DNA of 63,258 nucleotides, filler included, from an uncultured Methanosarcinales archaeon (GCA_964510025.1; 6 parts of 6 records of this genome joined end to end with filler, not necessarily neighbours in it); one strand, 5' to 3'. Positions 7,606 through 22,998 are shown, counted from the first letter of the whole stretch. Program-made: numbers and translations. Notes: generated from the sequence alone by a model not told the origin.

Positions 7606-8592
7606 TTAAGGGACTTTTATCCTTTCAAGCACTTTCTTTATTATATCGTCTGTGGTTGTCTCTTCTGCCTCTGCCTCGTAGCTTAGAATTATCCTGTGCC
7701 TCAATACCCCGTATGCAACTGCCTTTACATCTTCCGGCATCACGTAGCCCCTACCCTGGAGCAGAGCATGCGCCTTCGCCCCCAGTATGAGCCAGATAGA
7801 TGCCCTGGGAGAAGCTCCATAGTCTATATGCCCGTCAAAATCAAGATTGTACCTATCTGGATATCTTGTGGCGTCTACTATGGCTGCAACATATTCCACT
7901 ATCTTTTCATCTGCATAGATCTGCCGGTTAAACTGTTGTATCCTGTCTATCTTGTCCTGGCTGAGGGTCTTGCTGGCCTTGAAAGCATGACCTTGGGTGT
8001 TTCTCATTATTATCTCTTTTTCCCCCTTCTTATCAGGGTAGCCTATTATGAGCTTGAACATGAACCTGTCTACCTGCGCTTCTGGAAGCTTATATGTGCC
8101 TTCTGTCTCTATCGGGTTCTGGGTTGCCAGTACCATGAACGGCCTGTCCAATGGAAAGGTCTCACCCTGTATCGTGACCTGTCTTTCCTGCATAGCCTCA
8201 AGCAGAGCAGACTGCACTTTTGGAGGCGCCCTGTTTATCTCATCTGCCAGTATGAAATTTGCGAATATCGGTCCTTTTTTTGTCGTGAAGCTTGAGTTCT
8301 TGTGGTTGTATATCTTTGTGCCGGTTATGTCTGCAGGAAGCAGGTCAGGTGTGAACTGTATGCGGTTGAAGCTGCCGCTGATCGTATCTGATATGGTCTT
8401 TATCATCAGGGTCTTTGCAAGCCCAGGCACACCTTCCAGAAGAACATGGCCGTCTGCTATAAGCGCTATCATAAGCCTCTCTAGTATATCCTCCTGGCCG
8501 ACTATGACCTTCTTCACCTCTGCCAGGGCCTTGCTTATCTCCTTGGAATATTGCTCAGCCTTCTGGTTTAATTTCTTGATATCAGAATTCAT
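7606..8592 (-). CDS. moxR: MoxR family AAA+ ATPase
   Basis: GHVLLEGVPGLAKT, RIQFTPDLLPAD, LADEINRAPPKVQSALLEAMQE, ATQNPIE. Confidence 0.97.
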   Translation of the reverse strand: MNSDIKKLNQKAEQYSKEISKALAEVKKVIVGQEDILERLMIALIADGHVLLEGVPGLAKTLMIKTISDTISGSFNRIQFTPDLLPADITGTKIYNHKNSSFTTKKGPIFANFILADEINRAPPKVQSALLEAMQERQVTIQGETFPLDRPFMVLATQNPIETEGTYKLPEAQVDRFMFKLIIGYPDKKGEKEIIMRNTQGHAFKASKTLSQDKIDRIQQFNRQIYADEKIVEYVAAIVDATRYPDRYNLDFDGHIDYGASPRASIWLILGAKAHALLQGRGYVMPEDVKAVAYGVLRHRIILSYEAEAEETTTDDIIKKVLERIKVP

Positions 8593-8596
8593 AATA

Positions 8597-8869
8597 TCAC
8601 AGTCCAAATGTCCTTTCGAATTCTTTCATCTCCCTCATCTTCTGCACAAAATCATTTCCTTTGTCGGTTATTATTATATATTCATAGTTTTTTTTCCTTA
8701 TCTTCCGCACAAGGCTCTTGTCTACAAGCTCCTCCAGATAGGATTTCATCTGGGTATGCGACAGGTTAGACTTATACATAAGGTGGGTGGGCTTTATCTC
8801 ACCACCCTTTGTCTGGATCGAGGTTAGCATGTCCGCTATGATCTCGATCCTACTTCTTTTTCTTGCCAT
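8597..8869 (-). CDS. archaeal winged-helix DNA-binding protein
   Basis: [15 protein letters not shown]...[11 protein letters not shown]...YLEEL...ITDKG; start taken at the ATG at 8869. Confidence 0.85.
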
Positions 8870-9548
8870 GCTTAAGCACCATGATAAAGGTAACGAGCAG
8901 CAAAATATAGCCAAGAAGCTGCAGAATCTCAGCTGCAACGTAGAACAGCTCATTCGCTTTTACAAATATAAAGAGTATCTGGCTTACGGCGATTATGAGG
9001 AAACTGTATGCCAGCACCCTCGTAGTAAGAAGCTTGTTCATCTTATAGTGGACAAAATACTGGTAAGTGAGTATGACCAGGAGCATCAGTGCTGTAAAAT
9101 GGAAGATATAGTAGGCTTTTTGTGTAAATACCATCAGCACTACGATAAGATAGCTTATTATCATCATATTTGTCTTTGGCTGCCTCTTGAAATACACAGA
9201 ATAGAGGAGATATAGGCCTATGAGCGTGAATACCCTGTACATAAGAAATCCAAAAAAGAACAGCGCATTTGTATACTTCGTAACTGGATATGTAAGCGTC
9301 AGCAATCCGATATTTTTCTGTTCCAGTACATCGTAATATATGGTGAAATTAGTTATTATCTTTGAGACAAATGACAAGGCGATAAGAAAAAAGGAGCTTG
9401 ACAAAAGCAGATAGTTGCCCTTCTTCTTGTCAAGCCAATAGTACTTGAAGCTGAAGAACGCTATCAATAAAAGAACTATAATCGCCACTATATCTATTAC
9501 TATGTCCTTGCCATAGAACCATTTGGGGCTGAAGATTATCTCGACCAT
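8850..9548 (-). CDS. multi-pass membrane protein (about 7 TM), possible sensor coupled to the wHTH gene
   Basis: Hydrophobic 232-aa ORF overlapping the wHTH start. Confidence 0.7.
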
Positions 9549-9654
9549 ATTGTGATGCCCATCATTTCCCTTTAAAAAACTTATGAATCTTTCTTCTATA
9601 ACTCATTAGCATAGCTTATTTATAAATGCAGAGAGAGGGTATTATCAGATTGGG

Positions 9655-10965
9655 TCAAGGAAGCCTACCCCTCAACACCTCCATATGTTCTATCCTTCTC
9701 CCAATCAGTTCTTTTTTTCCTATATCTTCTCTGTGGAAGACAGCACCTTTCACAGAGCTTACTGCATCCTCTGCGATGAGCTCAGCTGCTTCTATGTCCG
9801 GAGCAATCCCCACAAACGCAACTGCCCTGCTTTTTGACATATGCAGACCGTCTTCTTTCTGGTCAACTGAAGCATAATAGATTCTTGCATTCTCGCTTAC
9901 CTTGCTTAAATCCACCCTGCCCCCTGCAGGATTATCTGGATAGCCTTCTGGCACTGCATATTTGCATACAGTTGAATCGCCGGAAAACATTGGCTTGATC
10001 TGGTGCAATTTGCCGTCTACCACTGCTTTGCAGATATCGACAAAATCATTCTTTAGGATCGGCAGCACATTCATAGCTTCAGGATCGCCAAACCTGGCAT
10101 TGTACTCGATAAGCTTGACACCATCCTTGGTTATTATAAAGCCGCCATACATGACCCCTTTGTAAGCCTGGCCAGTCTCTTTTTTTATGGCTTCAGCCAT
10201 CTTTTTAGTTATCTCATGAGCCTGTTTAAGGTCTTTTTCCGTCATGAACGGAAGCAGCTTTCCTGTTGAGTAAGAGCCCATGCCCCCTGTGTTCGGCCCC
10301 TTATCCCCCACATATGCCCTCTTATGGTCCTGTACAGGGGGAAAATCAAAAAGGTTTTTTCCGTCGCACAGGCTTTGGAGGGAGAATTCCTCCCCTTCCA
10401 GCTTTTCCTCAATCACAACCTTATTGTCATCGTTGATATATCCGATAGCAAGATGCAGGCCGTCCTCTTTTGTTGCAAAATGGTCGCCCTGGACCATGAC
10501 CCCTTTTCCCCCTGTCAGGCCGTCCGGCTTTACAACAAACTCATCCAGGACTTCAACAAATTCCTTTGCCTGCTGCTCTGTTTCGCATACCTTAAATCTG
10601 GGCATGCCAGGGATATTATATTTCTTCATCAATAATCTTGTGAAGCTCTTGGAAGTTTCCAGCCTTGCTAGGCTTTTTTTCGGTCCGACCGAACTTATGT
10701 TAATTATCTCTAAAGCATCTACAACACCATTGCTTAGGGGGTCTTCCGGGCCGATGAAGGCCAGCTCAACTGCATTTGCTTCAGCAAACGCCTTTATGGC
10801 ATCCAGGTCATCATATTTTCCAATCTCAACCTGCTCGCTAAGCGCAGCAATCCCCGGATTTTTTGTCTTCATATAAGAGAATAACTTTGGCTTTTGGGGA
10901 GAATTCATTATCGCTTCTGCAATAGCATGCTCCCTTGCCCCGTTTCCTATCAATAGTATGTTCAT
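9655..10965 (-). CDS. purD: phosphoribosylamine--glycine ligase
   Basis: IGNGAREHA, GPEDPL, VVKPDGLTGGKGV, QDHKR...GPNTGGMGSY, EYNARFGDPE. Confidence 0.98.
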   Translation of the reverse strand: MNILLIGNGAREHAIAEAIMNSPQKPKLFSYMKTKNPGIAALSEQVEIGKYDDLDAIKAFAEANAVELAFIGPEDPLSNGVVDALEIINISSVGPKKSLARLETSKSFTRLLMKKYNIPGMPRFKVCETEQQAKEFVEVLDEFVVKPDGLTGGKGVMVQGDHFATKEDGLHLAIGYINDDNKVVIEEKLEGEEFSLQSLCDGKNLFDFPPVQDHKRAYVGDKGPNTGGMGSYSTGKLLPFMTEKDLKQAHEITKKMAEAIKKETGQAYKGVMYGGFIITKDGVKLIEYNARFGDPEAMNVLPILKNDFVDICKAVVDGKLHQIKPMFSGDSTVCKYAVPEGYPDNPAGGRVDLSKVSENARIYYASVDQKEDGLHMSKSRAVAFVGIAPDIEAAELIAEDAVSSVKGAVFHREDIGKKELIGRRIEHMEVLRGRLP

Positions 10966-11002
10966 TGTAAACACCCCTTTTTATTAAAGAAACAGCTGAT
11001 AT

Positions 11003-11650
11003 TTATAGTTTTTGGAGCACATGAAGCAAGTCGCTGAGTTTTTCAATTGTTTTTGTATTTACATGGATGCCGTTTCTATTGAGGAAAATGAAATTCCATC
11101 CAAGCGGAACAACACCATTCATGTCTGCCCTTACAGATGAAGCAACATGGGTTATATCTTCTTTCCTGCATCCGAGCCTCTTCAGGGCAAACTCAAATAT
11201 TTTTTTGTTGGGTTTATAAAAAAATCCAGCATCTTCTGATGTTATTATCTCATCAAAATCAAAAAATTCTAAGGTCTTCCTAATAATATCATTGTCTATA
11301 TTGGAAATTACTGCCAGCGTGTAGCATGTTTTTAATTTTTTTAGCACATCCACCGTTCCTGGAAAAGGCCTTGCTGATGCATAATAATCCAGAAATCGCC
11401 CAAACCTATCGCTGCTGAATTTGTCCCCAAGAACAACCTGCAGGCTTTCCTTGGCGGAATATTTGAAGGAAACTCTCCTGGAATTTATATTTTCAAAATT
11501 TTTCTTGTTCCACTCCTCATATAATCTCCTAGCCTTTGTCCTGTCGATTTCCCTGAAAATTCTCTGCAAGGCAGATTCTATGTCTACCAATGTGCCGTAA
11601 AGGTCAAATGTTATATATCTGGTCATTTGAGGGATAAAAACATCAGGCAT
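11003..11650 (-). CDS. HAD-superfamily hydrolase (haloacid dehalogenase type II-like)
   Basis: FDLYGTLVD motif I, ISN motif II, YKP motif III, HVASS..AD; overlaps the radical SAM stop codon. Confidence 0.88.
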   Translation of the reverse strand: MPDVFIPQMTRYITFDLYGTLVDIESALQRIFREIDRTKARRLYEEWNKKNFENINSRRVSFKYSAKESLQVVLGDKFSSDRFGRFLDYYASARPFPGTVDVLKKLKTCYTLAVISNIDNDIIRKTLEFFDFDEIITSEDAGFFYKPNKKIFEFALKRLGCRKEDITHVASSVRADMNGVVPLGWNFIFLNRNGIHVNTKTIEKLSDLLHVLQKL

Positions 11651-13031
11651 TAAATAGTTTGTGCCTTGCAGTGGAATTGAGCTGGTTCCAGCCAGGCATC
11701 CTCGGATCTATGCCCATATATGGGGAGCCGAAAGTGCTCTTCAAAGGTGTGAGCGAAAGCAGTCTGAACATGTATTCAACCCCTGTGTCGAAGCCAGTCC
11801 TGCATTTGTATTGGAACCACAGCCTTTGGAGTTGCTCACCATCTGTCACCAGGGGCAGCTCTTGACCTGTCCTTGCAAGATGCTCCTGCTTTATATCCTC
11901 ATAGGCCCTGCTTCCAGGCAGAGGTATAAGCATAGACACAGATAGCTCTTCACATCCGTTTGCAGCAACCACCCTTGCCGCTATCTGGTAGGTCTTTTCA
12001 AGGCTGTCTTCACTCTCACCTGGCAGCCCCACTATGAAGCTCGGAAGAAGCCTGATGCCATACTCTTTTGCTGTGGCAGCTACGCTCAATGTCCTGCTGT
12101 TACGGTTGCCTTTGGTGATGTCCCTGGCGATCCCGTCATCACCGGTCTCGATGCCTACAAGGATCTGGTATACGTTTATCTTGGCAAGATTGCTTAGCAT
12201 TTCTTCTGTCAGTTCTGAGACCCTTGCATAGACATACCAGTATGGCCTTATTCCTTCCGGTCTCTTCTCGGTCATCTCTCTTATCCACTGCCTGTCTGAG
12301 GTGAAGCTGTCAGAAACATCCCATATGAAATCAGCATCGTAATCTCTTACCAGTGCAGAAACCTCAGCCCATACATCTTCAGGCTTCCGGGTCTGCAGCT
12401 CTCCATAGAGCCTGCCGCAAAAATAGCATCCGCCCGTCTTTGCCCTCCATCTGCACCCTTTGTTTGAATAGACATTTGTCATCCTCCTGAAAGGCCTTCC
12501 GGGCATGTATGTTTCTATGAACACAGAGGAATTTTGCATATATCTTTCCTGGTCATAGAGGCTCCTGTCCACAGCAGGAAGCTCATCGATAGGCACCCTT
12601 TGAAGCTTTCCTGGCTTCGTAGCAGAGGCTAAGCCTTCCACCGCATCAGGATCCTTGCCCTTGGTTAGCTTTAGTATCGGGATTTCCCCGTCGCCTACTG
12701 CCACGTAATCCACGTAAGGCAGCCTGATGAAGTCCTGCCATGCCTGGGAAGCATGCACCCCCCCTAATATCACTTTCTGGCCTCTGTCATGAAGTCTTTT
12801 CATAAGGCCGGCATCAACATTCAGGATATTTGGCTGTATGCCTATCATATCACCATCAAGCCGTGCTTCAAGGTCCTCAAAATCGCCGTCAATGACTTCG
12901 ATATCAGCCTCTGGATTATGCTGCCTGACAAATGTCGCTACAGCAGCTATCCCCAGCGGAAAGACCATCATGTCTCTGCCATTCTTCATCGCACGGCTTC
13001 CTAACTTTGTCTGCAGCAGCTGGATCTTCAT
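11643..13031 (-). CDS. cobalamin-binding radical SAM enzyme (class B methyltransferase-like)
   Basis: PLGIA...ILGGVHAS...VAVGDGE B12-binding domain; cluster motif GCRWRAKTGGCYFC; VGIETGD, FIVGLPGES, PLPGS; start taken at MKIQ (13031). Confidence 0.9.
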   Translation of the reverse strand: MKIQLLQTKLGSRAMKNGRDMMVFPLGIAAVATFVRQHNPEADIEVIDGDFEDLEARLDGDMIGIQPNILNVDAGLMKRLHDRGQKVILGGVHASQAWQDFIRLPYVDYVAVGDGEIPILKLTKGKDPDAVEGLASATKPGKLQRVPIDELPAVDRSLYDQERYMQNSSVFIETYMPGRPFRRMTNVYSNKGCRWRAKTGGCYFCGRLYGELQTRKPEDVWAEVSALVRDYDADFIWDVSDSFTSDRQWIREMTEKRPEGIRPYWYVYARVSELTEEMLSNLAKINVYQILVGIETGDDGIARDITKGNRNSRTLSVAATAKEYGIRLLPSFIVGLPGESEDSLEKTYQIAARVVAANGCEELSVSMLIPLPGSRAYEDIKQEHLARTGQELPLVTDGEQLQRLWFQYKCRTGFDTGVEYMFRLLSLTPLKSTFGSPYMGIDPRMPGWNQLNSTARHKLFNA

Positions 13032-13130
13032 CCTGAAAAGGTCCTGGAAAACGGTTTTAAACTGTTGCCTTAAAAAAATCGGAATAATTTCGAGAATATT
13101 TGGCAGGAAGAGGCTTCGATGCATCATGAC

Positions 13131-14075
13131 TTATTTCATCAGGGCGCTCACCAGCATGTCAATCGCCTGATCCTGCGTTAGCCCTCTTGCCATAAGCGCT
13201 TCCAGCTGCTTGCTGTTTAGGCTGCCGATAGCTGCCTCATGGGTCACTCTTGCATCCTTGTGTCTTACATCCACAATGGGTGTTGCCCTTGCTGAAGCCT
13301 GCCCCAATAATGTTTCAATGCAGTCAACGTGGCCTAGACATCCTGATTCAAACGCCGTTATGACGCTTGTCACATCCGAAGCTGATATGTCGCTGCCTAC
13401 TATCCTTGTACTGACAGTGCCTTTCGACCCATTCCCTCTCAAAATAACCTTTTCATCTATGTGGATATCATCATCCCCTGAAGCTCTCACTTTTGCAAGC
13501 AGGCTAACAGTGCTGCCAGATCCGACGTCCACACCATAGTCTATCCTAATTCTGCCGGCTCTGCCCTGAGTAAGATAAAAATTTCCATCATACTGGCTTG
13601 TTTCTCCCAAACAGACATCAAGCCTAGGATTGACCTCAATCCCTCCGTCTGTTCCATGATAATGCGCTTCTGTATACTTGAATCCGGAGTGATCTCCGAT
13701 GCGTATGTTTCCTTTCATATTGTGTACTATCTTCCTTGCGTTGGGAAATACGCAATACGCCATAAACTCAACAGCTGAACAGTCTTCTATAACTCCGTTG
13801 ATAGCTATATCCTGCCTTCCGCTTTCAGGGACTATGCCGAAGCAAATGTACACAGGTACATCTATCCTAACTCCTGATTTAAGCCTGAATCCTAGATCTA
13901 CCCCATATTGATTCTCGGTGCATTCTATATCCAATCCAGCTAATGCTTCAGACCTATAGACTTCATTTCCATGGACCATAAGATACGCATGGTCTCTTCC
14001 CTCAAATGATTCAGGCATGCCTCCCGCCTGTCTCAGACCATCCATGAGATGATTCTGGTAAGTCCTTGCAGTCAT
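13131..14075 (-). CDS. sufB: SufB/SufD-family Fe-S scaffold (SmsB-type)
   Basis: PVYICFG, CVFPNA, EAHYHG, GHVDCIE, ARVTHEAAIG...LMARGL. Confidence 0.93.
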   Translation of the reverse strand: MTARTYQNHLMDGLRQAGGMPESFEGRDHAYLMVHGNEVYRSEALAGLDIECTENQYGVDLGFRLKSGVRIDVPVYICFGIVPESGRQDIAINGVIEDCSAVEFMAYCVFPNARKIVHNMKGNIRIGDHSGFKYTEAHYHGTDGGIEVNPRLDVCLGETSQYDGNFYLTQGRAGRIRIDYGVDVGSGSTVSLLAKVRASGDDDIHIDEKVILRGNGSKGTVSTRIVGSDISASDVTSVITAFESGCLGHVDCIETLLGQASARATPIVDVRHKDARVTHEAAIGSLNSKQLEALMARGLTQDQAIDMLVSALMK

Positions 14076-14797
14076 GATTGATCACCTATCCGGGGACAGG
14101 CTGTGCATCTCTCACCGAAATATCGAATTACTTCCTCAGGTGGCCCTATCCTTTCAAGATATCCTCTGCAGAGTATAGCTGCCCGGTCTGATATTTCTGC
14201 CAATTCCTGTTCATGGGTGATTAGTATGACAGTAGCATCTTTTTTTCGATCCTTGATTGCATCTTTTATCTGTCGGAATCCATGGATATCTATGCCGCTA
14301 TCCGGCTCATCAAGTATCATAAGGTCTGGCCTGGATGCAAAAACACAGGCCAGCTCTAGTCTTTTTCTTTCTCCCCCGCTGAGCGAATCATCCATATACC
14401 TTTTAAGATAGGCTTCAGAAAGTCCGCAGATATCTAGATATCTGATATAGTGCTCATCTTCCTTTTCGCCAAGTGCCAGGCCAAGATAATCCCTGACCGA
14501 GATACCCTCAAACCTTACCATCTCCTGGAAAGACAGAGCTATCCCGCGTCTTGCCCGTTCAGTTAATCCTGTTCCGGTTATGTCTTCCCCTTTGTAGACT
14601 ATCTTCCCAGAAGCAACATTGTAACCGCTGAGACCCATAACTGTCGCCGCTAAAGATGTCTTTCCTGACCCATTTGTCCCTAAGACGGCAAATATCTCAT
14701 TGCTATAGACTTTTAAGCTTATATCATGGAGAATTTTTGTGTCCCTGTTCCCTACACAAAGTCCGTCAATGCTTAACAATGCATTCATTTTATCCAT
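14072..14797 (-). CDS. sufC: SufC-like ABC ATPase (SmsC-type)
   Basis: GTNGSGKTS Walker A, LSGGERKR, ILDEPDSGID, C-terminal CTAC. Confidence 0.92.
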   Translation of the reverse strand: MDKMNALLSIDGLCVGNRDTKILHDISLKVYSNEIFAVLGTNGSGKTSLAATVMGLSGYNVASGKIVYKGEDITGTGLTERARRGIALSFQEMVRFEGISVRDYLGLALGEKEDEHYIRYLDICGLSEAYLKRYMDDSLSGGERKRLELACVFASRPDLMILDEPDSGIDIHGFRQIKDAIKDRKKDATVILITHEQELAEISDRAAILCRGYLERIGPPEEVIRYFGERCTACPRIGDQS

Positions 14798-15938
14798 GCT
14801 CTTTCAGCAAATCCCTAAAGGTGCAGAGCACTTTCTCAAGATCTTCCCTGGGGATACCATATGTGGATACTTTCATAGACTTGGTCAACCCGTGCTTTAC
14901 ACCTGTGATCCCATCCTGTTTCAGAGCTTCATATAGGAAGGCCCTTTTTTTGGGATGAGTCTGTGATATCTCATAGAAAGCGTCAGTCTCAAACATCATC
15001 AGGTCATGGTTGTGGGGCTTGTCACCTAGCTGTAGGAAGCCCATTGCTTCCATCTGCTCCGAAAACCATCTCGCTTTCTGAACCTCCTCTTCCCATTTTG
15101 CGACTCTCTCAACAACATACGGGAAGGAAGCCATCAGGGTTAGCAGAGGGACGCCCCGGACTGTGCAGCCAAGGCACCCGACTTCCTTTTTGCTATATCT
15201 TTCGGACTTATGCATGGTTCTTTCGATATAGTCATCGCTTATGCCAAGAACCCCAATAGGTCCTGCAGAAGCCATGCTCTTATGGCCGCTTCCTATGATG
15301 AAGTCAGCCCCTAGATCATGCATTGAGACAGGCATCCTGCCTATAGCATAGGCGGCGTTGATCACGTAAGGTATTCTGAACTGGTGTGCTATCTGTCCCA
15401 GTCTTCCGGCATCAGGAAGGTTTCCATAATTCCCATCAGGATATGTAAGCAGCAAGAGTTTTGGATGATGCTGCTCTATATGCGGTACAAAGTCCTCAAC
15501 ATCGATTTGATTTTCAGGTCTTCCGTTGTTTTCAACCTCCACTATGTTAAGTCCTGCCCTTTCAGCAGCTAGTATAGTAGAATAATGTCTATTCCTGTCC
15601 ACCACTATTGTATCTCCTGGGCTGCAGATTGCATCCATCACCATGAATTTGGCTTCTCTTGCTCCATGGGTTAATCTTACATGATCGGCATCAATAAACA
15701 GCCCAAGGTCTTCCTGCACAAATCTTTGTATGGGTGGGTTCTGGATCTGATGCAGGTCACCTTTGCAATAGTCGCAAACTGAGTACCCATCCCCATATTC
15801 CTCCAGCACTCTCCGGGCCTCTGGCGTCAGCCTGGCTGCTGTCTGTAGGGGATTGAAGTTTATTGCATCTCTGTTTGCTCTTCTCAATCCAGTATATCTC
15901 TTTCTTAGCTCCTCTATTCTTGCTGAAAGATCTTTCAT
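14790..15938 (-). CDS. pscS: O-phospho-L-seryl-tRNA:Cys-tRNA synthase (SepCysS)
   Basis: NPLQTAA.LT.EA, GDGYSVCDYC.G.L, GAREAKF, YPDGNYGN, PLP lysine in GSGHKSMA, third Cys in LGCTVRG. Confidence 0.97.
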   Translation of the reverse strand: MKDLSARIEELRKRYTGLRRANRDAINFNPLQTAARLTPEARRVLEEYGDGYSVCDYCKGDLHQIQNPPIQRFVQEDLGLFIDADHVRLTHGAREAKFMVMDAICSPGDTIVVDRNRHYSTILAAERAGLNIVEVENNGRPENQIDVEDFVPHIEQHHPKLLLLTYPDGNYGNLPDAGRLGQIAHQFRIPYVINAAYAIGRMPVSMHDLGADFIIGSGHKSMASAGPIGVLGISDDYIERTMHKSERYSKKEVGCLGCTVRGVPLLTLMASFPYVVERVAKWEEEVQKARWFSEQMEAMGFLQLGDKPHNHDLMMFETDAFYEISQTHPKKRAFLYEALKQDGITGVKHGLTKSMKVSTYGIPREDLEKVLCTFRDLLKEHG

Positions 15939-17458
15939 TTTTTCTCATAGCTCACTGTAAGAAATACAGGTCCGCCCACCCTGATCCTTTTATGTTGCCC
16001 TGTTATATAATTAAGTATGTCTGATGGAAGCTCCAGATTTATATCGGGCAGGGATCTGGCCATCTTTACCCTGTATATGCCGCTCGGCTTGCCTCTATCA
16101 ACATCTCTTTCGATATCAGCAGCTATCCCTGCTGCTATGGAATCGACATAAGCAAAGCTTCTTTTGTGCTGCAAATGTTCTTGAGGGCAGCTGTCGATAT
16201 TACCATCCTGCACATAAGCATGATTGTGCGCGGCAGGCCCCACAAGTCGCTTACCTTCCTCATTTTCCTCGACCACCACCTTTAGTTCGCTATCTTCATA
16301 GGCTAAGAATCTACAGGGGGCTTCAGCTCTGCCATGCTTTAAAACCGCCTCCCTTATCCCCTCGCTTATTGCCGCTCCCCGCTCTGTATTTGGTTTTCTT
16401 GCATAATGCAAAGAATCCTCTATGGTTGTGTCATCGAAACTTCTGCTGTAGAACTGGGGGAAAACCAGCTGTCTTATATCATCATACCCCCCCATGATCA
16501 TCGCTAGCCTCTCAACCCCGAAACCAGCGTTGAAAACAGGATATCTTATTCTGAAATTCGCCAAGCTTATTGGGGAATACATCCCTATATCGCCTATCTC
16601 CAGCCACTCATCGCCCAATCTGGCAAAGACTTCTTGTTCATGACCAGGGGCATAGTATTTGGAAGTGGCTTTTTTTGTTTCAAATCTTGCATCTGAAAAG
16701 CCGAATCTAAGCAAAAAATCTAAGGTAATCCTTTTACCTGCTGCAAGGGACATATCAGGATCCATCACTACCATGCTGGTTGAATTATGCACCCTGAGGT
16801 GACCTTTGTCTTCCCTTTGCTCATTCCTGTATCTTGCTCCGACGGAGAACAGCGCAACCGGAAAATGCCACCTGTCCTGTACTGCAGCCAATGTATGGTA
16901 CCATGTAGCTGTCATATGGCTTCTGAGTGTGAGATCACTAGCTGCCGGTTCAAGCCTGGTTAGCTCAGGAAAAACCATGCGTAGCATAAGAGTAGCCTGC
17001 TGCTCCTCGATTCCCAGGTCAGTGGCAAGGACTTCCACAAAATCATCAGATTCTATGGCGCCAGACTTATACCCCCTCAATATTTCTTGTAGCTTTGCTA
17101 TATCAAATTGTCCGATTATCTCCTCGATTTTGCCTATCTTGTCTCTTCCTAAGCCAAGTTCAGGCCTGGGCAAGGTAGCCAGATAAAAGCATCTGTCCAG
17201 TATCACAGGGGCTTCTGGGCCGTACTGTTTATATACATCTGCTTCCGATACAAAGGTCCTGTTTTCTGTCTCTTTGAATCCCATGTCTATGAGTATCTCT
17301 CTGCTCCTTTGCACACTATTCCTGAAGGGGTGGGAGGTGCCTGTCTGAGGAAGCTCTAAAGTCGTGTCTTCCGGAAGAAGTTCTGCAGAATCCAGCCAAG
17401 CCTTCTCAAAATCTCTTCTGCTGGATCTAAGTAGCTGTTTTGTGTTAAATTGGGCCAT
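15935..17458 (-). CDS. sepS: O-phosphoseryl-tRNA(Cys) synthetase (SepRS)
   Basis: VYKQYGPEAPVILDRCFYLA.LPRP, TLRSHMT, EQRED..HL, SKYY, GMYSP..LA, GVERLAMI, C-terminal GPVFL. Confidence 0.97.
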   Translation of the reverse strand: MAQFNTKQLLRSSRRDFEKAWLDSAELLPEDTTLELPQTGTSHPFRNSVQRSREILIDMGFKETENRTFVSEADVYKQYGPEAPVILDRCFYLATLPRPELGLGRDKIGKIEEIIGQFDIAKLQEILRGYKSGAIESDDFVEVLATDLGIEEQQATLMLRMVFPELTRLEPAASDLTLRSHMTATWYHTLAAVQDRWHFPVALFSVGARYRNEQREDKGHLRVHNSTSMVVMDPDMSLAAGKRITLDFLLRFGFSDARFETKKATSKYYAPGHEQEVFARLGDEWLEIGDIGMYSPISLANFRIRYPVFNAGFGVERLAMIMGGYDDIRQLVFPQFYSRSFDDTTIEDSLHYARKPNTERGAAISEGIREAVLKHGRAEAPCRFLAYEDSELKVVVEENEEGKRLVGPAAHNHAYVQDGNIDSCPQEHLQHKRSFAYVDSIAAGIAADIERDVDRGKPSGIYRVKMARSLPDINLELPSDILNYITGQHKRIRVGGPVFLTVSYEKK

Positions 17459-18281
17459 CCTTGTTCCCCAGGAAGAGACCCGTAAAATAATTTGTCACAA
17501 GGCTTGCTAGCCTATGCCTATGGTTGCTGTAGCGGTGATCGGCGTCACCTATCAGATAGAATTCTTTTTCACAGTCAGCGGCCTCAAAAAGCATTCTGCC
17601 ATGATCCGGATCAACTTCCTTGTCAGCAGTCCCATGAACCACCAGGAGGCTGTCCAGCTCTAGCTGCTCAACCATGGGCCTTGTTATAAGATTGCCATCC
17701 TTCACCTCAGGCCTGTTCGCGTATGCTACTTTCCGTGCAGGATCATGCAGCTCCAGTAAATGATATTGCTGCAGTTGCCATTCCTGGGGATCTCCCTCCA
17801 CTTTTGCAGAGCCATACTCTAGCAGTGCAGCCATGTCGATATCAGTGTGGAATCTGGCTAGGTCGATAACAGGTGAGACGCAGGCTAACCTTCTGATCCC
17901 ATAGTTCTTTGCAATATTTACGGCAAAGAGCCCTCCGAATGAGTATCCGAGCAGTGCAAGCCGGTCGGTATCAGGCTCAAACCGATCATGAATATCCTCA
18001 AGCACCTGCCTGATGTCGTACATGGCGCCAGTAAAAGAAAAGCTGCCTGTGCTCCCGCCAACACCCCTATAGTGGATAAGGGCAGTAGACATGCCTCCAG
18101 CCGAAAGTCCTATGGCTATATCGCTGTTTTTTTCATCTCCAGGAAACCCATGGCATAATACTATCCACGGGGCGTCTTTTCCCCTATACCTGATCTCAGT
18201 CCTGACAGTCTCATGATTTACATCAGTTTCCAGTGTCCCGACTGACATAGCACGCTCGCCAAAAGGATTTTCTGATAGCAT
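17445..18281 (-). CDS. alpha/beta-fold hydrolase
   Basis: CHGFPG, nucleophile elbow GYSFGG, VHGTAD, ADH triad His. Confidence 0.9.
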   Translation of the reverse strand: MLSENPFGERAMSVGTLETDVNHETVRTEIRYRGKDAPWIVLCHGFPGDEKNSDIAIGLSAGGMSTALIHYRGVGGSTGSFSFTGAMYDIRQVLEDIHDRFEPDTDRLALLGYSFGGLFAVNIAKNYGIRRLACVSPVIDLARFHTDIDMAALLEYGSAKVEGDPQEWQLQQYHLLELHDPARKVAYANRPEVKDGNLITRPMVEQLELDSLLVVHGTADKEVDPDHGRMLFEAADCEKEFYLIGDADHRYSNHRHRLASLVTNYFTGLFLGNKDGPI

Positions 18282-18282
18282 T

Positions 18283-19620
18283 CTATTTTTCCTGCATAAT
18301 TTGGACTATGGTCTGGTCCGTCGCTACCATAGCATGAGATATCCTTCCAACACCCCTGATGGTCTCTTCAGCATCGGCATATACTATTCCATTATCTTCA
18401 GGGACGGTAATGCCGGCCAAGGCCATAAATGCGCTCTCAGCCGCCGTCCCCGCAGCTGTGGATAGCTTCAGTGAACAGCTTTCCTTTGCCCCGTCGCATA
18501 TCATGCCTGTTAGGTTGGATGCCATTATGTTTATCGCATTATTTATCTCTTCGAGACCGCCGCCCATTAGATATGCTACACCGGCAGAAGCTCCCATGCC
18601 TGCCTTTATAGCGCATCCGCAGATAGCCGAAAGGTGTCCTGAATAATCTTTGATATACTTAGTTACGAGATGGGATAGAAGAGCAGCTTCTGCTGTCTTT
18701 TCTCTGTCTATACCATATCTTCTGCCGACTATAGCTATCGGTATCAGAGCAGTTATTCCCTGGTTGCCTGATCCTGCTGTGCTCATTACAGGCATATTGG
18801 CTCCGCCCATCCTTGCATCACCGGCAGCAGCAGCCATGATCCTTATTTCAGACACTATGCCATCTCCCAAGATTCCCTCATCCATCATCTGCTGCAGATT
18901 TTTAGCATGACCAATGCCATACTCGCCTCTTAATCCTTCTTCTGCTATCCTGAGATTCATCTCTATGCCTTTGTAGACTTCCTGCCTTTCCTGGCACGAC
19001 ATATTCTTTGCTATGTCTATCAGTTCAGCCAATGTGCCAGGAAAATCACTTTTTTCCCCATCCCTGAGACTAGCATCCCCTTCATATGCTGTATGGCCGT
19101 CAAGTTCTATACTTGTTATATTGTCATGATAATGCTGCAGCCTGACAACGGCTTGTCTAGTTGCCGAGTCATACCGGTAGCTCAGCCTCACACTGATGTC
19201 AAGGTCAGCTACCGCACCTTCATCCGTGACATCCTCTATTCGGATCTTGCCAGCGCTGATAAGCTGATGCGCGTTAGCTGCCTCATGGCCCCTTAAGCCT
19301 GCAAAAAGATTGAGGCCGTCTCTGGGATCGCAATACAGCCCCATTCCAGAAGCTATAGCCATCCCTCTCTGTCCGCCTGTACCAGGTATGGATATAGCAA
19401 GAGAATTTTTATAGACATCCCTATCTGTTTTTATGGATATTCCCTCCACCCTGTGGATTTCAGGAGGGACCGCTCTGCCCCGAAAGACTGGAGCATTTCC
19501 TGAGCCAATCAACCCGCCCAAAGCATGATAAGCAACTGAGGTTGCGTAAGCAACAGCTATCGGTTCAGTGCAGCCAGTAGCTGGTTTGACATTAGCTGCT
19601 AAAAAATCCATTACGTTCAT
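18283..19620 (-). CDS. L-cysteine desulfidase (CyuA/YhaM family, serine dehydratase alpha-like, Fe-S)
   Basis: PATGCTEPIAVA, DARMGG...MSTAGSGNQG, LSAICGC, GMICDGAKESC. Confidence 0.88.
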   Translation of the reverse strand: MNVMDFLAANVKPATGCTEPIAVAYATSVAYHALGGLIGSGNAPVFRGRAVPPEIHRVEGISIKTDRDVYKNSLAISIPGTGGQRGMAIASGMGLYCDPRDGLNLFAGLRGHEAANAHQLISAGKIRIEDVTDEGAVADLDISVRLSYRYDSATRQAVVRLQHYHDNITSIELDGHTAYEGDASLRDGEKSDFPGTLAELIDIAKNMSCQERQEVYKGIEMNLRIAEEGLRGEYGIGHAKNLQQMMDEGILGDGIVSEIRIMAAAAGDARMGGANMPVMSTAGSGNQGITALIPIAIVGRRYGIDREKTAEAALLSHLVTKYIKDYSGHLSAICGCAIKAGMGASAGVAYLMGGGLEEINNAINIMASNLTGMICDGAKESCSLKLSTAAGTAAESAFMALAGITVPEDNGIVYADAEETIRGVGRISHAMVATDQTIVQIMQEK

Positions 19621-19730
19621 GGTAGAAAATTACATTACTATGCTTTAATATCTCTTGCCTGAAAAAATCCGATGTATTTCCGCAGCTTATCGGAAATTGT
19701 CCAGCTATCCTGTATAAGCGCGGATAATTT

Positions 19731-20165
19731 TCAAGATTCAGGCAAAAACTCCTCATACTTTATCTCTTCTAGCGTATGGAATATTTGCATCTCTTTAACA
19801 CCAATCGACCTCACCTCTTCCTTAAATAGTTCTAGTTCCGCTATATTCCTAAAAATGCCCTCTGCAATGAAGTCAGATCCTCCTGCTACCCGATATAATG
19901 AATTCACGTTATTGTGATCGCATAAGTATTCCCTCATTTGCTTCTTGCTGTCGGTGCTGATCACAACATTGACCCTCAGCCCATATCCCATCTTGGAGAA
20001 ATCCATTATCGTCACATGCCTTCTGATCAAACCGTTCCTCAGCCTTTCGATATTGTCAAAAACAGTGGACTTTGGTATACCTGTAGTACTGGCTATGGCC
20101 GTTACGGGCTTCCTGGAGTTTTCTCTTAGGTGCTTAAGTATCTTAAGTTCATTTGATGAAAGCAT
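19731..20165 (-). CDS. Lrp/AsnC family regulator
   Basis: ILKHLRENSR...STVFD HTH; DFSKMGY; RAM domain. Confidence 0.92.
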   Translation of the reverse strand: MLSSNELKILKHLRENSRKPVTAIASTTGIPKSTVFDNIERLRNGLIRRHVTIMDFSKMGYGLRVNVVISTDSKKQMREYLCDHNNVNSLYRVAGGSDFIAEGIFRNIAELELFKEEVRSIGVKEMQIFHTLEEIKYEEFLPES

Positions 20166-20242
20166 TGAAACATCTATTGTTTTTTTGTTTATATCTCTTT
20201 ATCAAGAAATATTGTGAAATATCTGAATTACCCGAAAAATGT

Positions 20243-20707
20243 TCAGTAAAGTAGGTTCAACAGCTCAGCCTGTGTCATAAATCCCTCTTTCTTGATATCT
20301 TCGATAAGATAGAAGACCTTTCGCTCGGATACTTCAAATCTTTCTTCAATATGCTCAAGAAACTCTTCCAGGTCCTTTATGCTTCTGAAGATGACTTCTA
20401 TCAAAAAATCGTAGCCGTTGTTTATCTTCAGGACAGTATTTATATTCTGATGTTTCACAAGATAGTCCCTGAGCTCATCCCGCTTGTGCTTGCTGGCCTT
20501 GAGACATACGTTAGCCCTTGTGCTGAACCCCAATTTTTCAAAGTCGATAAGAGATGTGTGTTTTTTAATGACAGTTTTCTCATGCAGTCTAAGCCTGTCA
20601 AAGATTGTAGATATCGGTATAGAAGTTCTCTTGCTCATCCTGGTTAGGGACATCCTGGCATCCTGCCTGAGGCTGCTTAGGATAAGCATGTCCTTTTTTT
20701 GTAGCAT
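20243..20707 (-). CDS. Lrp/AsnC family regulator
   Basis: ILSSLRQDARMSL...STIFDRL, DFEKLGF, KINNGYDFL. Confidence 0.93.
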   Translation of the reverse strand: MLQKKDMLILSSLRQDARMSLTRMSKRTSIPISTIFDRLRLHEKTVIKKHTSLIDFEKLGFSTRANVCLKASKHKRDELRDYLVKHQNINTVLKINNGYDFLIEVIFRSIKDLEEFLEHIEERFEVSERKVFYLIEDIKKEGFMTQAELLNLLY

Positions 20708-20849
20708 CGTCATCCCTCCGTGCAATTTCTATATGTTGCAAAATATTTCCGTCATATATAAATACATAGCGTAAATTAGTGTAGCTATAATGACATCATT
20801 ACACTAAAATAACATAAAGCTTAAATATGAGAGATCCATTTTTAGCTTC

Positions 20850-21821
20850 ATGGAGGAGTCGGCGATCATAGAGCACCTTGGCATGACCGAGCAGCAGTAT
20901 AATATATTAAAGGCAATAGTCCAGCTGAATAGGTCAAAGATAAGGGCATCAGCAGCCAATATAGACAGGAAATATAAAGAGCTTTTCCAAGTTTCCATAA
21001 ACAAGTCCAACCTGTTCAGGCAGATGAGGAAGCTATCCGACCATGGTATGATAGTCAAGGCCAATGGCAGAGGATACTGCATAGATCTCGAGGGCATCAA
21101 GGATAATCTCAGGCAAAGGCAGCAGCAGCTATCATCTGAGCTAGACTCTCTGTCGAAGCTTCACGATAATGTGGCTCGGGAATTTGCGCATCTGGGTCAG
21201 CAGGAGGCAGAACCTTCTGTCAGCTATCTTACATCAGCAGCGGAGTTTTTTGAGGAAGTAAATAAGGTTCTGGTCAATGCGCAGAAGATATACATAGTAT
21301 CACCTTTTGCAAACATATTCTTCACCCCCCATATCAGCAAGGCAGCATCACGCAACAGGTATGTGGAGCTGCTTATAGAGAAATCTTTTGTTAAAAAAGA
21401 GCTAGATATAGTCTATCTAACCCAGTTCAACCTCTATGTGCCGTTTTTTCATGCTTACAGGAGGCTGAAAAGCATGCAGGCTGCCCGGGCAGAAGTTGAG
21501 ACGAGCGTAGGAAATATATCAAAGATGATCGCTACCCAGCCAAAGCTCAATGCCTATTTCCTGGAATATCCTTATGGCTTCGATTTTCTCATGCCTGTAA
21601 GGGATGAAGAGCCTTATCACACTTTCATGTACACAAGAGATGAGCATAATATTATCACCGGCGGCATACATATCCGATCGCATGAGATCGCTGAAAGGGC
21701 GCAGAAGCATTTCCTCAGAGAGTGCAGCGTAGGCACAGACCTTAAGTCAAAGAAAGGGAAGATCATACTCAGGCGCCTTCTGTCAAAGGCCAGGAAATAC
21801 AGCTTTAAAGCAGAGCCCTGA
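20850..21821 (+). CDS. TrmB-like HTH transcriptional regulator
   Basis: N-terminal wHTH (LGMTEQQYNIL...SNLFRQMRKLSDHGMI), coiled coil, effector-like C-terminal domain. Confidence 0.6.
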   Translation: MEESAIIEHLGMTEQQYNILKAIVQLNRSKIRASAANIDRKYKELFQVSINKSNLFRQMRKLSDHGMIVKANGRGYCIDLEGIKDNLRQRQQQLSSELDSLSKLHDNVAREFAHLGQQEAEPSVSYLTSAAEFFEEVNKVLVNAQKIYIVSPFANIFFTPHISKAASRNRYVELLIEKSFVKKELDIVYLTQFNLYVPFFHAYRRLKSMQAARAEVETSVGNISKMIATQPKLNAYFLEYPYGFDFLMPVRDEEPYHTFMYTRDEHNIITGGIHIRSHEIAERAQKHFLRECSVGTDLKSKKGKIILRRLLSKARKYSFKAEP

Positions 21822-22998
21822 AGAGGTTATCAAGGGCTGCCACATATCTTTGAACGCTAGAGGTACTTACCCACTCTTCTATGGTATGTGCTCCTTTTCC
21901 TGCAGGACCGAAACAGACAGCATCTTTGCCAGCGATCCTGAAATGCTTGCCGTCAGAAAAATATCTTGCAGGCTTTGTTGCTGGGCATTTGCCAGTGGCA
22001 TCTTTTGCAGCAGATGCAAGCATTTCCACTGCATGGATGCCAGCATCTGTTTCAGTGGGCGGAAGGTCCAGCATTACAGCAGCTATCTCAATCCCGTATC
22101 CCCCTAACTCTTCCTCAAATTCTCGTTTTTCTCCTGGTGACGTGTATCTGAAGTCCAGTTGCGCAGTAGCAATGTCTGGAACACGGTTTATACGGGAGCC
22201 GCCGTAGAGGCATCCCACATTAAGTGAGGTAGTGAANNNNNNNNNNNNNNNNNNNNNNNNNNNNNNNNNNNNNNNNNNNNTTAATTAATTAANNNNNNNN
22301 NNNNNNNNNNNNNNNNNNNNNNNNNNNNNNNNNNNNAGTGAGGTAGTGAAATCCCCTGTATCATTGTTTCTGTTGTATCTCTGCATCATCTGATCAAGGC
22401 AGCTGGCCATGGATACAAGCGCATTATCCCCAAGACCCGGCAATCCGCCATGTGATGATCTCCCTTTTTTTGTAGCCTCCAACCAATAGATGCCTCTTTC
22501 CTGGTTGACTATGTCAAGATCAGTGGGCTCGCCGGCTATCACAAGCTGGCATCCTGAAAGGTCCAGCAAGCCTTCTCTTACCGCATATCCTGCGCCATGG
22601 AGACCTCCGATCTCTTCATCGCTTGTCAATAGAAGTCCGACAGGCGGCCTTTGCCGGTCATAGTTGTTCATAAGGTTTATGAATGCCGCCACAGCGGTTT
22701 TCATGTCCAGGGATCCTGTTCCGTATAGTCTCCTGCCTGCGATCCTTGGAGGGCTATAGTGTCTGGCATCATCAACCACAACATCAAGATGCCCGGAGAG
22801 TATCAACTTTGGCCTCTCACGAAGTGCATGATATATCATAGGATAGCCATTTCTTGAATACACCATGGGCCTTCTGGCGCTATGCAGGGATCTGCACGCC
22901 AGGGAAGCAGCATGTTGGATACCTTCTGGATTATCATGATCTGATTCTATGCTAATCAGCTGTTGAGCCAGTTCAATTACCTGAGTTACGGAATTCAT
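21805..22998 (-). CDS. M20 family metallopeptidase/deacylase (ArgE/DapE-like), split by an assembly gap
   Basis: GHLDVV, GTGSLDMK, DEEIG, GEPT, NVG...GG..NRVPD, GAHTIEE; the contig ends overlap by 14 nt and join in frame (about 359 aa). Confidence 0.9.

Follow-up and report, generated by a model that had tools for sequence, protein, structure and literature searches.

Operons that encode SepRS, the O-phosphoseryl-tRNA synthetase, together with SepCysS, the Sep-tRNA:Cys-tRNA synthase, have been described in DPANN archaea, Parcubacteria and Chloroflexi, including a Woesearchaeota case (Mukai 2017, PMC5424206; Mukai 2022, PMC8762117; these and the papers named below are cited for the parts covered), and two relatives with the type of SepRS discussed here charge O-phosphoserine (Sep) in vitro on an A37 tRNA (PMC5424206). 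For SepCysS, sulfide suffices in vitro, and the in vivo sulfur donor was stated to be open in 2008 (PMC2330236). The SUF-like minimal system (SMS) builds iron-sulfur (Fe-S) clusters from sulfide, and its sulfide supply has also been stated to be open (PMC12192291). The desulfidase CyuA feeds [4Fe-4S] tRNA thiolases in vitro, deletion of cyuA slows growth even on sulfide, and a role as a sulfide transferase has been proposed (PMC12647591). Here we describe a gene cluster at positions 11003-19620 of a 63,258-nucleotide stretch of archaeal DNA (hereafter the window, at its full length) in which genes of all three systems lie in a single run. The original prediction, made from the sequence alone, had regarded the pathway as unexpected in such a host, a view not supported in the light of the published DPANN and Woesearchaeota operons (PMC5424206, PMC8762117). 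With moderate confidence, we read the first six genes as a sulfide-handling kit that travels with one SepRS clade of Woesearchaeota-type archaea, in which CyuA supplies hydrosulfide to SepCysS and to the SMS scaffold SmsCB, and the last two genes as a neighbor with its own promoter.

Eight open reading frames (ORFs), all on the minus strand, occupy 11003-19620, and their coordinates reproduce exactly the predicted eight-gene layout and junction lengths: a 1-nt gap and then overlaps of 14, 4, 8, and 4 nt from cyuA to smsB. The overlap between the radical SAM and haloacid dehalogenase (HAD) genes measures 8 nt. To judge from the sequence, the eight genes look like two transcription units, cyuA-abh-sepS-pscS-smsC-smsB followed by radical SAM-HAD. 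The genes of unit 1, in order of transcription, are:

18283..19620, minus strand: cyuA, [4Fe-4S] L-cysteine desulfidase, 445 aa; opens the putative unit 1
17445..18281, minus strand: abh, alpha/beta hydrolase, 278 aa (Hydrolase_4, E 3.5e-12); occasional module member
15935..17458, minus strand: sepS, O-phosphoseryl-tRNA synthetase, 507 aa (TIGR00470); type without the m1G37-reading motif
14790..15938, minus strand: pscS, Sep-tRNA:Cys-tRNA synthase, 382 aa (TIGR02539)
14072..14797, minus strand: smsC, SufC-like ATPase of the SMS Fe-S scaffold, 241 aa (best match in the Protein Data Bank, PDB, MJ0035)
13131..14075, minus strand: smsB, short SufB-like scaffold, 314 aa (PF01458); last gene of the putative unit 1

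Family profiles, PDB matches, and catalytic residues uphold the gene identities originally assigned, and the catalytic residues are intact in the five core enzymes of unit 1. SepRS exceeds the TIGR00470 cut-off (436 bits against 380.65) and carries the SHMT (at 180), RYRNE, and NAG motifs. The Asn-X-Gly of the Sep pocket, which is altered in SepRS-like proteins (PMC8762117), is kept as N310-A-G312, and neither N310 nor G312 varies across the 33 rows aligned. Ile444 of Archaeoglobus fulgidus SepRS has Cys424 as its counterpart, and the helix after it is shorter by about seven residues. The original prediction had pointed to the tRNA-Cys identity elements as a check, and the host tRNA-Cys has A37, U73, and G1-C72. 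The features of methanogen-type SepRS (Ile444 with its helix; a G37 tRNA-Cys) are therefore lacking, and the enzyme is of the bacterial/DPANN type. A second "tRNA-Cys" called by ARAGORN on contig C2 reads on inspection as an intron-containing tRNA-Gly(GCC), leaving one credible tRNA-Cys. SepCysS likewise exceeds its cut-off (TIGR02539, 503 bits against 365.25), keeps C55xxC58, C258, and the pyridoxal phosphate lysine in SGHKS when aligned to A. fulgidus 2e7i, and is without the A. fulgidus 144-147 loop, as are bacterial SepCysS proteins. The operon contains no gene for SepCysE, the adaptor of the transsulfursome in class I methanogens; the 4-nt overlap of sepS and pscS leaves no room for one between them, the rest of the genome not having been searched for it. 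In their sequences, SepRS and SepCysS are canonical.

CyuA matches PF03313 with 189 bits, and its only two PDB matches are both L-cysteine desulfidase (9fsl, 9he0; E 2e-31). Its residues C17, E19, R270, N286, C334, C336, C375, C382, and K385 correspond to those named in PMC12647591. By alignment to 9fsl, the three cluster cysteines of the reference (C287, C329, C336) together with R223, N239, and K339 correspond to C334, C375, C382, R270, N286, and K385, and these six are each conserved in 118 or 119 of 120 homologues. The Cys23/Glu25 pair, which sets CyuA apart from serine dehydratases (PMC12647591), corresponds to C17/E19 in the sequence GCTE, a position mapped by motif as the N-terminus falls outside the PDB alignment; of the 120 rows, 113 have C at the first position of the pair and 113 have E or D at the second, and the remainder are gaps.

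The best PDB match of SmsC is MJ0035 (E 2.7e-59), the runner-up being an ABCA3 at 4e-34, and in the alignment its C210, C231, and C234 take the places of C218, C239, and C242, the cluster ligands of PMC12192291; the C-terminal CxxC predicted for the SufC/SufB pair is thus present in SmsC (C231, C234). SmsB belongs to PF01458, matches MJ0034 best over its whole length (E 9e-51), and is the sole SufBD-like match in the genome with the smsB query, with no SufD partner. It scores below the NCBIfam NF052511 cut-off (44 against 650 bits), a model of 445 positions, whereas SmsB at 314 aa has the size of MJ0034; this miss counts against membership of that subfamily, not of SMS. With three SmsC ligands, a short SmsB, and no SufD partner, the pair has the hallmarks by which an SMS scaffold would be recognized.

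The grouping of these genes recurs outside the host. We considered 86 SepRS loci, namely the best 80 of 295 from a metagenome scan plus six from genomes (among them L029 from G316), of which the 11 nearest come to 9 distinct ones once the duplicates L031/L032 and L033/L034 are merged. These nearest loci differ in gene order and flanks and range in GC content from 0.30 to 0.47. Among the nine, cyuA stands beside sepS in six, smsB is present in four, smsC (at least 40% identity) in three, a stand-alone CoaB-like gene in three, and abh in one (L031/L032), where the orthologue, 35% identical, occupies the same position and its catalytic serine is replaced by glycine. Locus L032 reads cyuA-abh-sepS-pscS-coaB-smsC-smsB, which is the host order with a CoaB-like insertion, followed by a SerK-like fragment and cysK; L039 reads cyuA-sepS-pscS-smsC-smsB-tRNA-Cys; and at L037 cyuA-smsC-smsB-coaB faces sepS-pscS. 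At L040 a SepCysS without the CxxC and the third cysteine (342-1460) is encoded between cyuA and sepS, with a tRNA-Cys behind sepS. Relatives add further cysteine genes at the same spot: tRNA-Cys, cysS, cysK, and the CoaB-like gene. The remaining 69 loci have no cyuA, including 0 of the 24 with long flanks, and their 27-36% "SufC" matches appear, in our reading, to be ordinary ABC ATPases. The linkage of the desulfidase and SufC/SufB genes to sepS-pscS, for which the original prediction had proposed synteny plots and SepRS trees as checks, was found in other genomes for cyuA, smsC, and smsB. The prediction's own ground for refutation, accessory genes unlinked to sepS/pscS everywhere else, does not hold for these three.

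A second test of linkage compared the exact sizes of the source contigs recorded for database proteins. For ten of the 21 nearest SepRS proteins, the contig size is also that of one of 119 CyuA matches (0.10 expected by chance), and among the next 98 SepRS proteins four do so (0.52 expected); one size-matched pair was confirmed directly, P0076 being the SepRS of L040. In a SepRS tree of 108 rows, all cyuA-linked SepRS proteins except that of L037 fall in one 31-row clade (support 0.93), spread across its sub-branches, and the 74-row sister group has no cyuA link (0/24 long loci with cyuA or smsB). SepRS and CyuA distances over 16 pairs, which include kin and are not independent, correlate with a Spearman coefficient of 0.38 (34/5000 permutations). 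Of 60 relatives, one yielded a true SepRS. SepCysS turned up in 5 of 400 order genomes (one is G316) and in none of 4 genomes of the family. CyuA was not found in 400 other order genomes, and a search with a 61-row profile found it in none of 340 genomes of the phylum; PF03313 occurs in 2 of 360 genomes of the class, one of which does not match CyuA (the order, phylum, and class samples overlap). The recurrence of CyuA with one SepRS clade, when it is otherwise not found in the lineage, lends independent genomic support to its proposed role as a sulfide transferase. Named genomes supply little context, as a search of named-genome contigs with a single SepRS protein returned one distant locus.

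Several observations made at these loci stand by themselves. At L037 (7535-7915), two different tRNA-Cys genes, one with A37 and one with G37, directly precede sepS. In one genus of the order (L018:507-4589 in G034:C31, L027, and L028), a cysS gene on the opposite strand lies between pscS and sepS. The L030 locus, whose SepRS (58%) is among the closest, has pscS only, among bacterial-looking neighbors (phosphofructokinase, CO dehydrogenase family, transporters), and neither cyuA nor smsCB in 17.5 kb. The stand-alone CoaB-like gene (PF04127, without a CoaC half) is found at L032:9585-10277, L034:4517-5173, and L037:10767-11381, with a short piece at L026:5898-6158; it directly follows pscS in the three distinct relatives (convergently in L037), with the short piece in a fourth, and the copies are 45-57% identical. 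The host has a normal coaBC on contig C16 and no stand-alone CoaB-like gene in the cluster. After smsB at L032, the stretch 12253-13637 includes, ahead of cysK, a gene for a ParB-like protein of 136 aa whose match to the serine kinase SerK falls in the N-terminal part of that kinase (E 4.5e-19, well below the cut-off); this fragment is a possible phosphoserine source inside the module.

Under our preferred reading, SepRS would charge phosphoserine, as is established for its family and as its residues suggest, on the host tRNA-Cys. The phosphoserine would probably come from a serA gene that in the host stands beside a class V aminotransferase gene, a probable source although neither gene reaches an equivalog cut-off. 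SepCysS would then replace the phosphate by sulfur, again as established for the family, and SmsC2B2 would build [4Fe-4S] clusters from sulfide as SMS scaffolds do; the obvious clients to be matured by SmsCB would be CyuA and SepCysS. Gene neighborhood and published chemistry together suggest that CyuA could act as a sulfur hub: hydrosulfide derived from L-cysteine or ambient sulfide would be bound at its three-cysteine [4Fe-4S] site and may pass from there to SepCysS and SmsCB, both of which would take sulfide rather than a desulfurase persulfide. As the host also has CysRS (cysteinyl-tRNA synthetase), the kit would open a second way to Cys-tRNA, starting from sulfide, and would let spare cysteine be turned into sulfide for a genome with 33 radical SAM domain matches. 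With CysRS present, nothing is gained by passing from cysteine to Cys-tRNA via CyuA, so that the kit would be useful for making Cys-tRNA out of sulfide and for feeding spare cysteine into Fe-S clusters. The predicted "own sulfur source" calls for caution, as the path from cysteine through sulfide to Cys-tRNA yields no net cysteine.

A number of points weigh against this reading. Where CysRS is present, the path just named runs as a futile loop; as the host already has NifS/NifU and a cysteine synthase besides, its need for a kit is not obvious. The link to cyuA is not obligatory: no cyuA was found at L030, L036, and L038, three of the nine distinct nearest loci, or in G034, G128, G156, and G224, genomes of the order in which sepS-pscS is present; and SepRS-SepCysS systems of the Chloroflexi type work without CyuA (PMC5424206). 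The SepRS-linked CyuA proteins do not form one clade and are intermixed with CyuA proteins named as Asgard and Thermoplasmata, that of L037 being distant (37%). The second class match to PF03313, in G443, is a fragment at a contig end with no sepS within 2.7 kb. Recent horizontal transfer is unsupported: the codon-usage deviation of the eight genes lies between the 9th and 59th percentile of size-matched host genes, GC content at third codon positions is ordinary, and no mobility gene was recognized beside the cluster; by its composition, the module is old in the lineage or long ameliorated. Clustering by shared regulation, finally, would give the same gene map.

A stronger form of the same idea is possible, though we hold it only tentatively: CyuA may be the physiological donor of SepCysS and of the SMS scaffold, handing hydrosulfide over directly from a [4Fe-5S] state, so that the operon would be the Methanococcales sulfur toolkit as one transferable unit. 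The pairing of cyuA with a cysteine-less SepCysS at L040 fits a donor that delivers sulfide itself, and direct hand-over, if true, would explain it. In the boldest form, the stand-alone CoaB-like protein would draw cysteine from the same route. A complex prediction for CyuA and SepCysS (one chain each, with alignments) scored 0.02 and was counted neither for nor against.

Rather unlikely, to our mind, yet the strongest competitor is a co-regulated, cysteine-themed island without chemical coupling: SepRS/SepCysS would make Cys-tRNA with free sulfide, SmsCB would serve as a spare scaffold, and the only task of CyuA would be to clear or ferment surplus cysteine, as it does in enteric bacteria, a shared regulator and joint movement keeping the genes together. 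Such an island would account for the variable membership (abh, the CoaB-like gene, cysK, cysS, tRNA-Cys, a SufS-like gene); E. coli cyuA is catabolic and under a cysteine-activated regulator (PMC9040844), and CyuA protects M. maripaludis against excess cysteine. It would also fit the region upstream of cyuA, which contains:

19644..19696, minus strand: candidate promoter region of unit 1, a TATA-like box and four TTCCG/CGGAA-type half-sites (sequence signal)
19731..20725, minus strand: two Lrp/AsnC regulator genes upstream of cyuA (19731-20165 and 20243-20725)

Across 571 free upstream regions of the host genome, TATA-like hexamers peak at -31 to -28 (113 matches in four positions against about 5 per position elsewhere), and the box of cyuA lies at -30. 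Four such half-sites are reached in 3 of 639 upstream regions, one other being at an Lrp locus. L032 also has an Lrp gene directly upstream of cyuA, with similar repeats between the two, so that Lrp genes and repeated half-sites precede cyuA in both; the L032 Lrp, at 30-38% identity, stands no nearer than the remaining Lrp paralogues of the host do, and the upstream Lrp/AsnC genes are possible regulators of cyuA through what is a weak link. On the other side, one transcript that both makes and destroys cysteine fits co-regulation poorly, no cysteine importer was recognized next to cyuA in the loci with listed ORFs (28 proteins scanned), and CyuA was otherwise not found in the order and phylum samples. 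Regulation shared between the cyuA and radical SAM upstream regions was considered and rejected, as their match of 19-20 of 34 positions is equaled by several others among 726 upstream regions.

We consider it improbable that the eight genes together form a single pathway in which Sep-tRNA or Cys-tRNA is channeled to a specialized product or tRNA modification by way of the hydrolase, radical SAM, and HAD proteins, which the original prediction had cast as tailoring enzymes. The features that bear on this are:

13055..13078, minus strand: T7 tract, a candidate unit 1 terminator, and TATA-like box, a candidate unit 2 promoter (sequence signal)
11643..13031, minus strand: B12-binding-type radical SAM protein, 462 aa, CX8CX2C (PF04055); putative unit 2
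11003..11650, minus strand: HAD hydrolase with likeness to haloacid dehalogenase type II, 215 aa (PDB match, TIGR01428); putative unit 2

The genes are all co-oriented, the radical SAM gene follows an Fe-S scaffold that its product could use, and the longest radical SAM ORF starts at 13127, only 3 nt after smsB. The start is most likely the ATG at 13031, however, since that is where the database copy (P0121, 462 aa) starts, as do most of the close homologues in the alignment; this leaves 99 nt after smsB, in agreement with the predicted gap of about 100 nt. This ATG has a TATA-like box at -29, preceded by the T7 tract, and the radical SAM and HAD genes occur at 0 of the 86 SepRS loci (8-kb flanks at L030-L032, L037, and L039); on these two grounds we read the cluster as two units, and the tailoring role is unsupported for either gene. 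None of 43 radical SAM homologues shares a source-contig size with any SepRS match. Two share one with a CyuA match (0.35 expected): one contig is too short for both genes, and the other is a candidate pair, radical SAM homologue P0133 and CyuA homologue P0199, whose source contigs are both of size 3679. A 31-34% homologue occurs in 7 of 400 order genomes (one, G210, was excluded from the reading of context), and the six distant loci read show no match to other cluster genes, two of them adjoining an aldo-keto reductase. As SepRS and SepCysS are canonical besides, the eight-gene pathway is largely refuted, and the radical SAM gene is probably not part of the cysteine pathway.

The three proteins themselves reach no specific family, and the ESM Atlas gave only generic families for the hydrolase and the radical SAM protein. 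The hydrolase has the nucleophile elbow GYSFG with S114. The radical SAM protein matches PF04055 with 55 bits and PF02310 with 30.2 bits (cut-off 32.1) and reaches no NCBIfam cut-off (best 92 of 577.6 bits); its motif is CX8CX2C instead of CX3CX2C across 18 aligned rows, one distant row having CX9. With 12 homologues at 50-67%, it defines a tight unnamed family that is marked by CX8CX2C and by a C-terminal tail, conserved within the family and lacking in the 30% relatives. As a rule, HAD phosphatases need a DxD motif. Motif I of the HAD protein is D-L-Y-G-T, its best PDB match is (S)-2-haloacid dehalogenase (E 2e-17), and TIGR01428 gives 95.5 bits against a cut-off of 125.4; a SerB-type phosphoserine phosphatase was rejected, given a motif I without DxD and nearest solved relatives that are haloacid dehalogenases.

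That the module replaces CysRS as the sole route to Cys-tRNA, as the original prediction had suggested and as is the role of SepRS/SepCysS in many methanogens (PMC8762117), is very improbable, since the host keeps a full, uninterrupted CysRS (530 bits, cut-off 340) in an in-frame CysK-CysRS fusion of 760 aa (L001:604-2886, G000:C3) that lies 9 nt behind the single credible tRNA-Cys, and cysS was also found within the stretch read near SepRS genes at L037, L039, L018, L027, and L028. No description of a CysK-CysRS fusion was found in the literature search; in the family relative G004, cysteine synthase and CysRS are encoded by separate adjacent genes.

The host genome measures 1.70 Mb and is 97.7% complete, and its order also includes G034, whose SepRS is assigned to Ca. 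Woesearchaeota in the protein database. The mcrA family (PF02249) was not found in it (0/1 host genome), the control having matched in both methanogens, which agrees with the predicted non-methanogen host. On contig C3 (L110, ~163.8-166.5 kb) a small helix-turn-helix regulator-like gene shares an operon with nifS, nifU, and the gene for a tRNA thiolase of TtuA/NcsA likeness, with 551 bits for NifS/NifU against a cut-off of 530.75; the nif operon is a second Fe-S system, and the tRNA thiolase is a possible further acceptor of CyuA sulfur. The genome has 33 radical SAM domain matches. On contig C1 (L135:668-13555, ~179-192 kb) a His-Xaa-Ser system, with HxsD and HxsB over cut-off and an HxsA4-like peptide, faces a six-gene run with radical SAM domains. 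The region G000:C16:6202-9795 reads, from N-terminal sequence only, as panB-panC-coaBC-pantothenate kinase, and near-complete coenzyme A synthesis would be notable for a small DPANN-type genome.

The window is a concatenation in which 1-22236 is contig C21 of the host genome (G000) and the remainder consists of other pieces behind runs of N; gene order across 22237, 40502, 47286, 54000, and 59465 is therefore meaningless, 22237-63258 being other contigs joined by N runs. Rfam gave no matches in 8000-22236. The smsB-radical SAM junction is spanned by a single bridging contig in each of three of three public DNA runs, and the HAD-purD junction is bridged in two; the bridging runs are microbial mat metagenomes, all of one study, and one is possibly the source sample. 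The gene purD is single-copy on the cluster contig, and one Lrp has a 73% paralogue on another contig. Mis-assembly and mis-binning were rejected on the strength of these bridged junctions, the single-copy purD, and the Lrp paralogue.

What is new is the arrangement, a six-gene variant of a known pathway plus two passengers; all parts are known families, and there is no new chemistry yet. Its interest lies in joining three questions in one overlapping unit, namely the SepCysS donor (PMC2330236), the sulfide supply of SMS (PMC12192291), and the transferase proposal for CyuA (PMC12647591). The operon names CyuA as a testable candidate for the natural sulfur supplier and provides a cognate protein set, in a 1.7-Mb DPANN-type archaeon with two Cys-tRNA routes and two Fe-S systems.

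Among described systems, the class B (cobalamin-binding) radical SAM enzymes (HpnJ-like) resemble the radical SAM protein in what appears to be an N-terminal B12-binding-like domain followed by a radical SAM barrel, and differ in the motif (CX3CX2C rather than CX8CX2C) and in that no named-family cut-off is reached here. The regulator CyuR is Lrp-like. With the E. coli cyuPA cysteine fermentation operon (PMC9040844) the cluster shares the CyuA desulfidase, and regulator genes lie upstream here; unlike cyuPA, it has no importer gene, and its partners are biosynthetic sulfide consumers.

The Mukai operons share with it the adjacent sepS-pscS, a SepRS without the m1G37 motif, a SepCysS without the 144-147 loop, and an A37 tRNA-Cys. 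L031 is a contig in Table S1 of that work (PMC5424206/PMC8762117), given for "CG (Woesearchaeota) archaeon," and the text of Fig. S2 of PMC5424206 has the labels "cysteine desulfidase" and "cdsB" in an operon panel, so that the desulfidase adjacency has been drawn at least once. In the parts covered, terms for desulfidase and SufBC are absent from PMC8762117, the main text of PMC5424206 is likewise silent, and "Suf" is absent from the supplements of both; the clade-wide recurrence, the SMS genes, and the CoaB-like partner are undescribed there. In the literature searched, subscription journals lying outside the coverage, no description was found of a recurring CyuA and SMS grouping with SepRS-SepCysS. 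Nor do the parts covered of the CyuA paper (PMC12647591) mention SepCysS, SepRS, or smsB, or those of the SMS paper (PMC12192291) cysteine desulfidase or SepCysS.

The Methanococcales, too, possess all three systems, and the key residues agree with those seen here: SepRS/SepCysS, SmsCB (MJ0035/MJ0034; PMC12192291), and CyuA (MMP1468; PMC12647591). There, SMS is sulfide-fed and CyuA has the three-cysteine [4Fe-4S] site and the Cys/Glu pair, features that the host proteins appear to share. Unlike the Methanococcales, which are without cysteine desulfurase, the host is a non-methanogen that has NifS/NifU and CysRS and carries the three systems in one overlapping operon.

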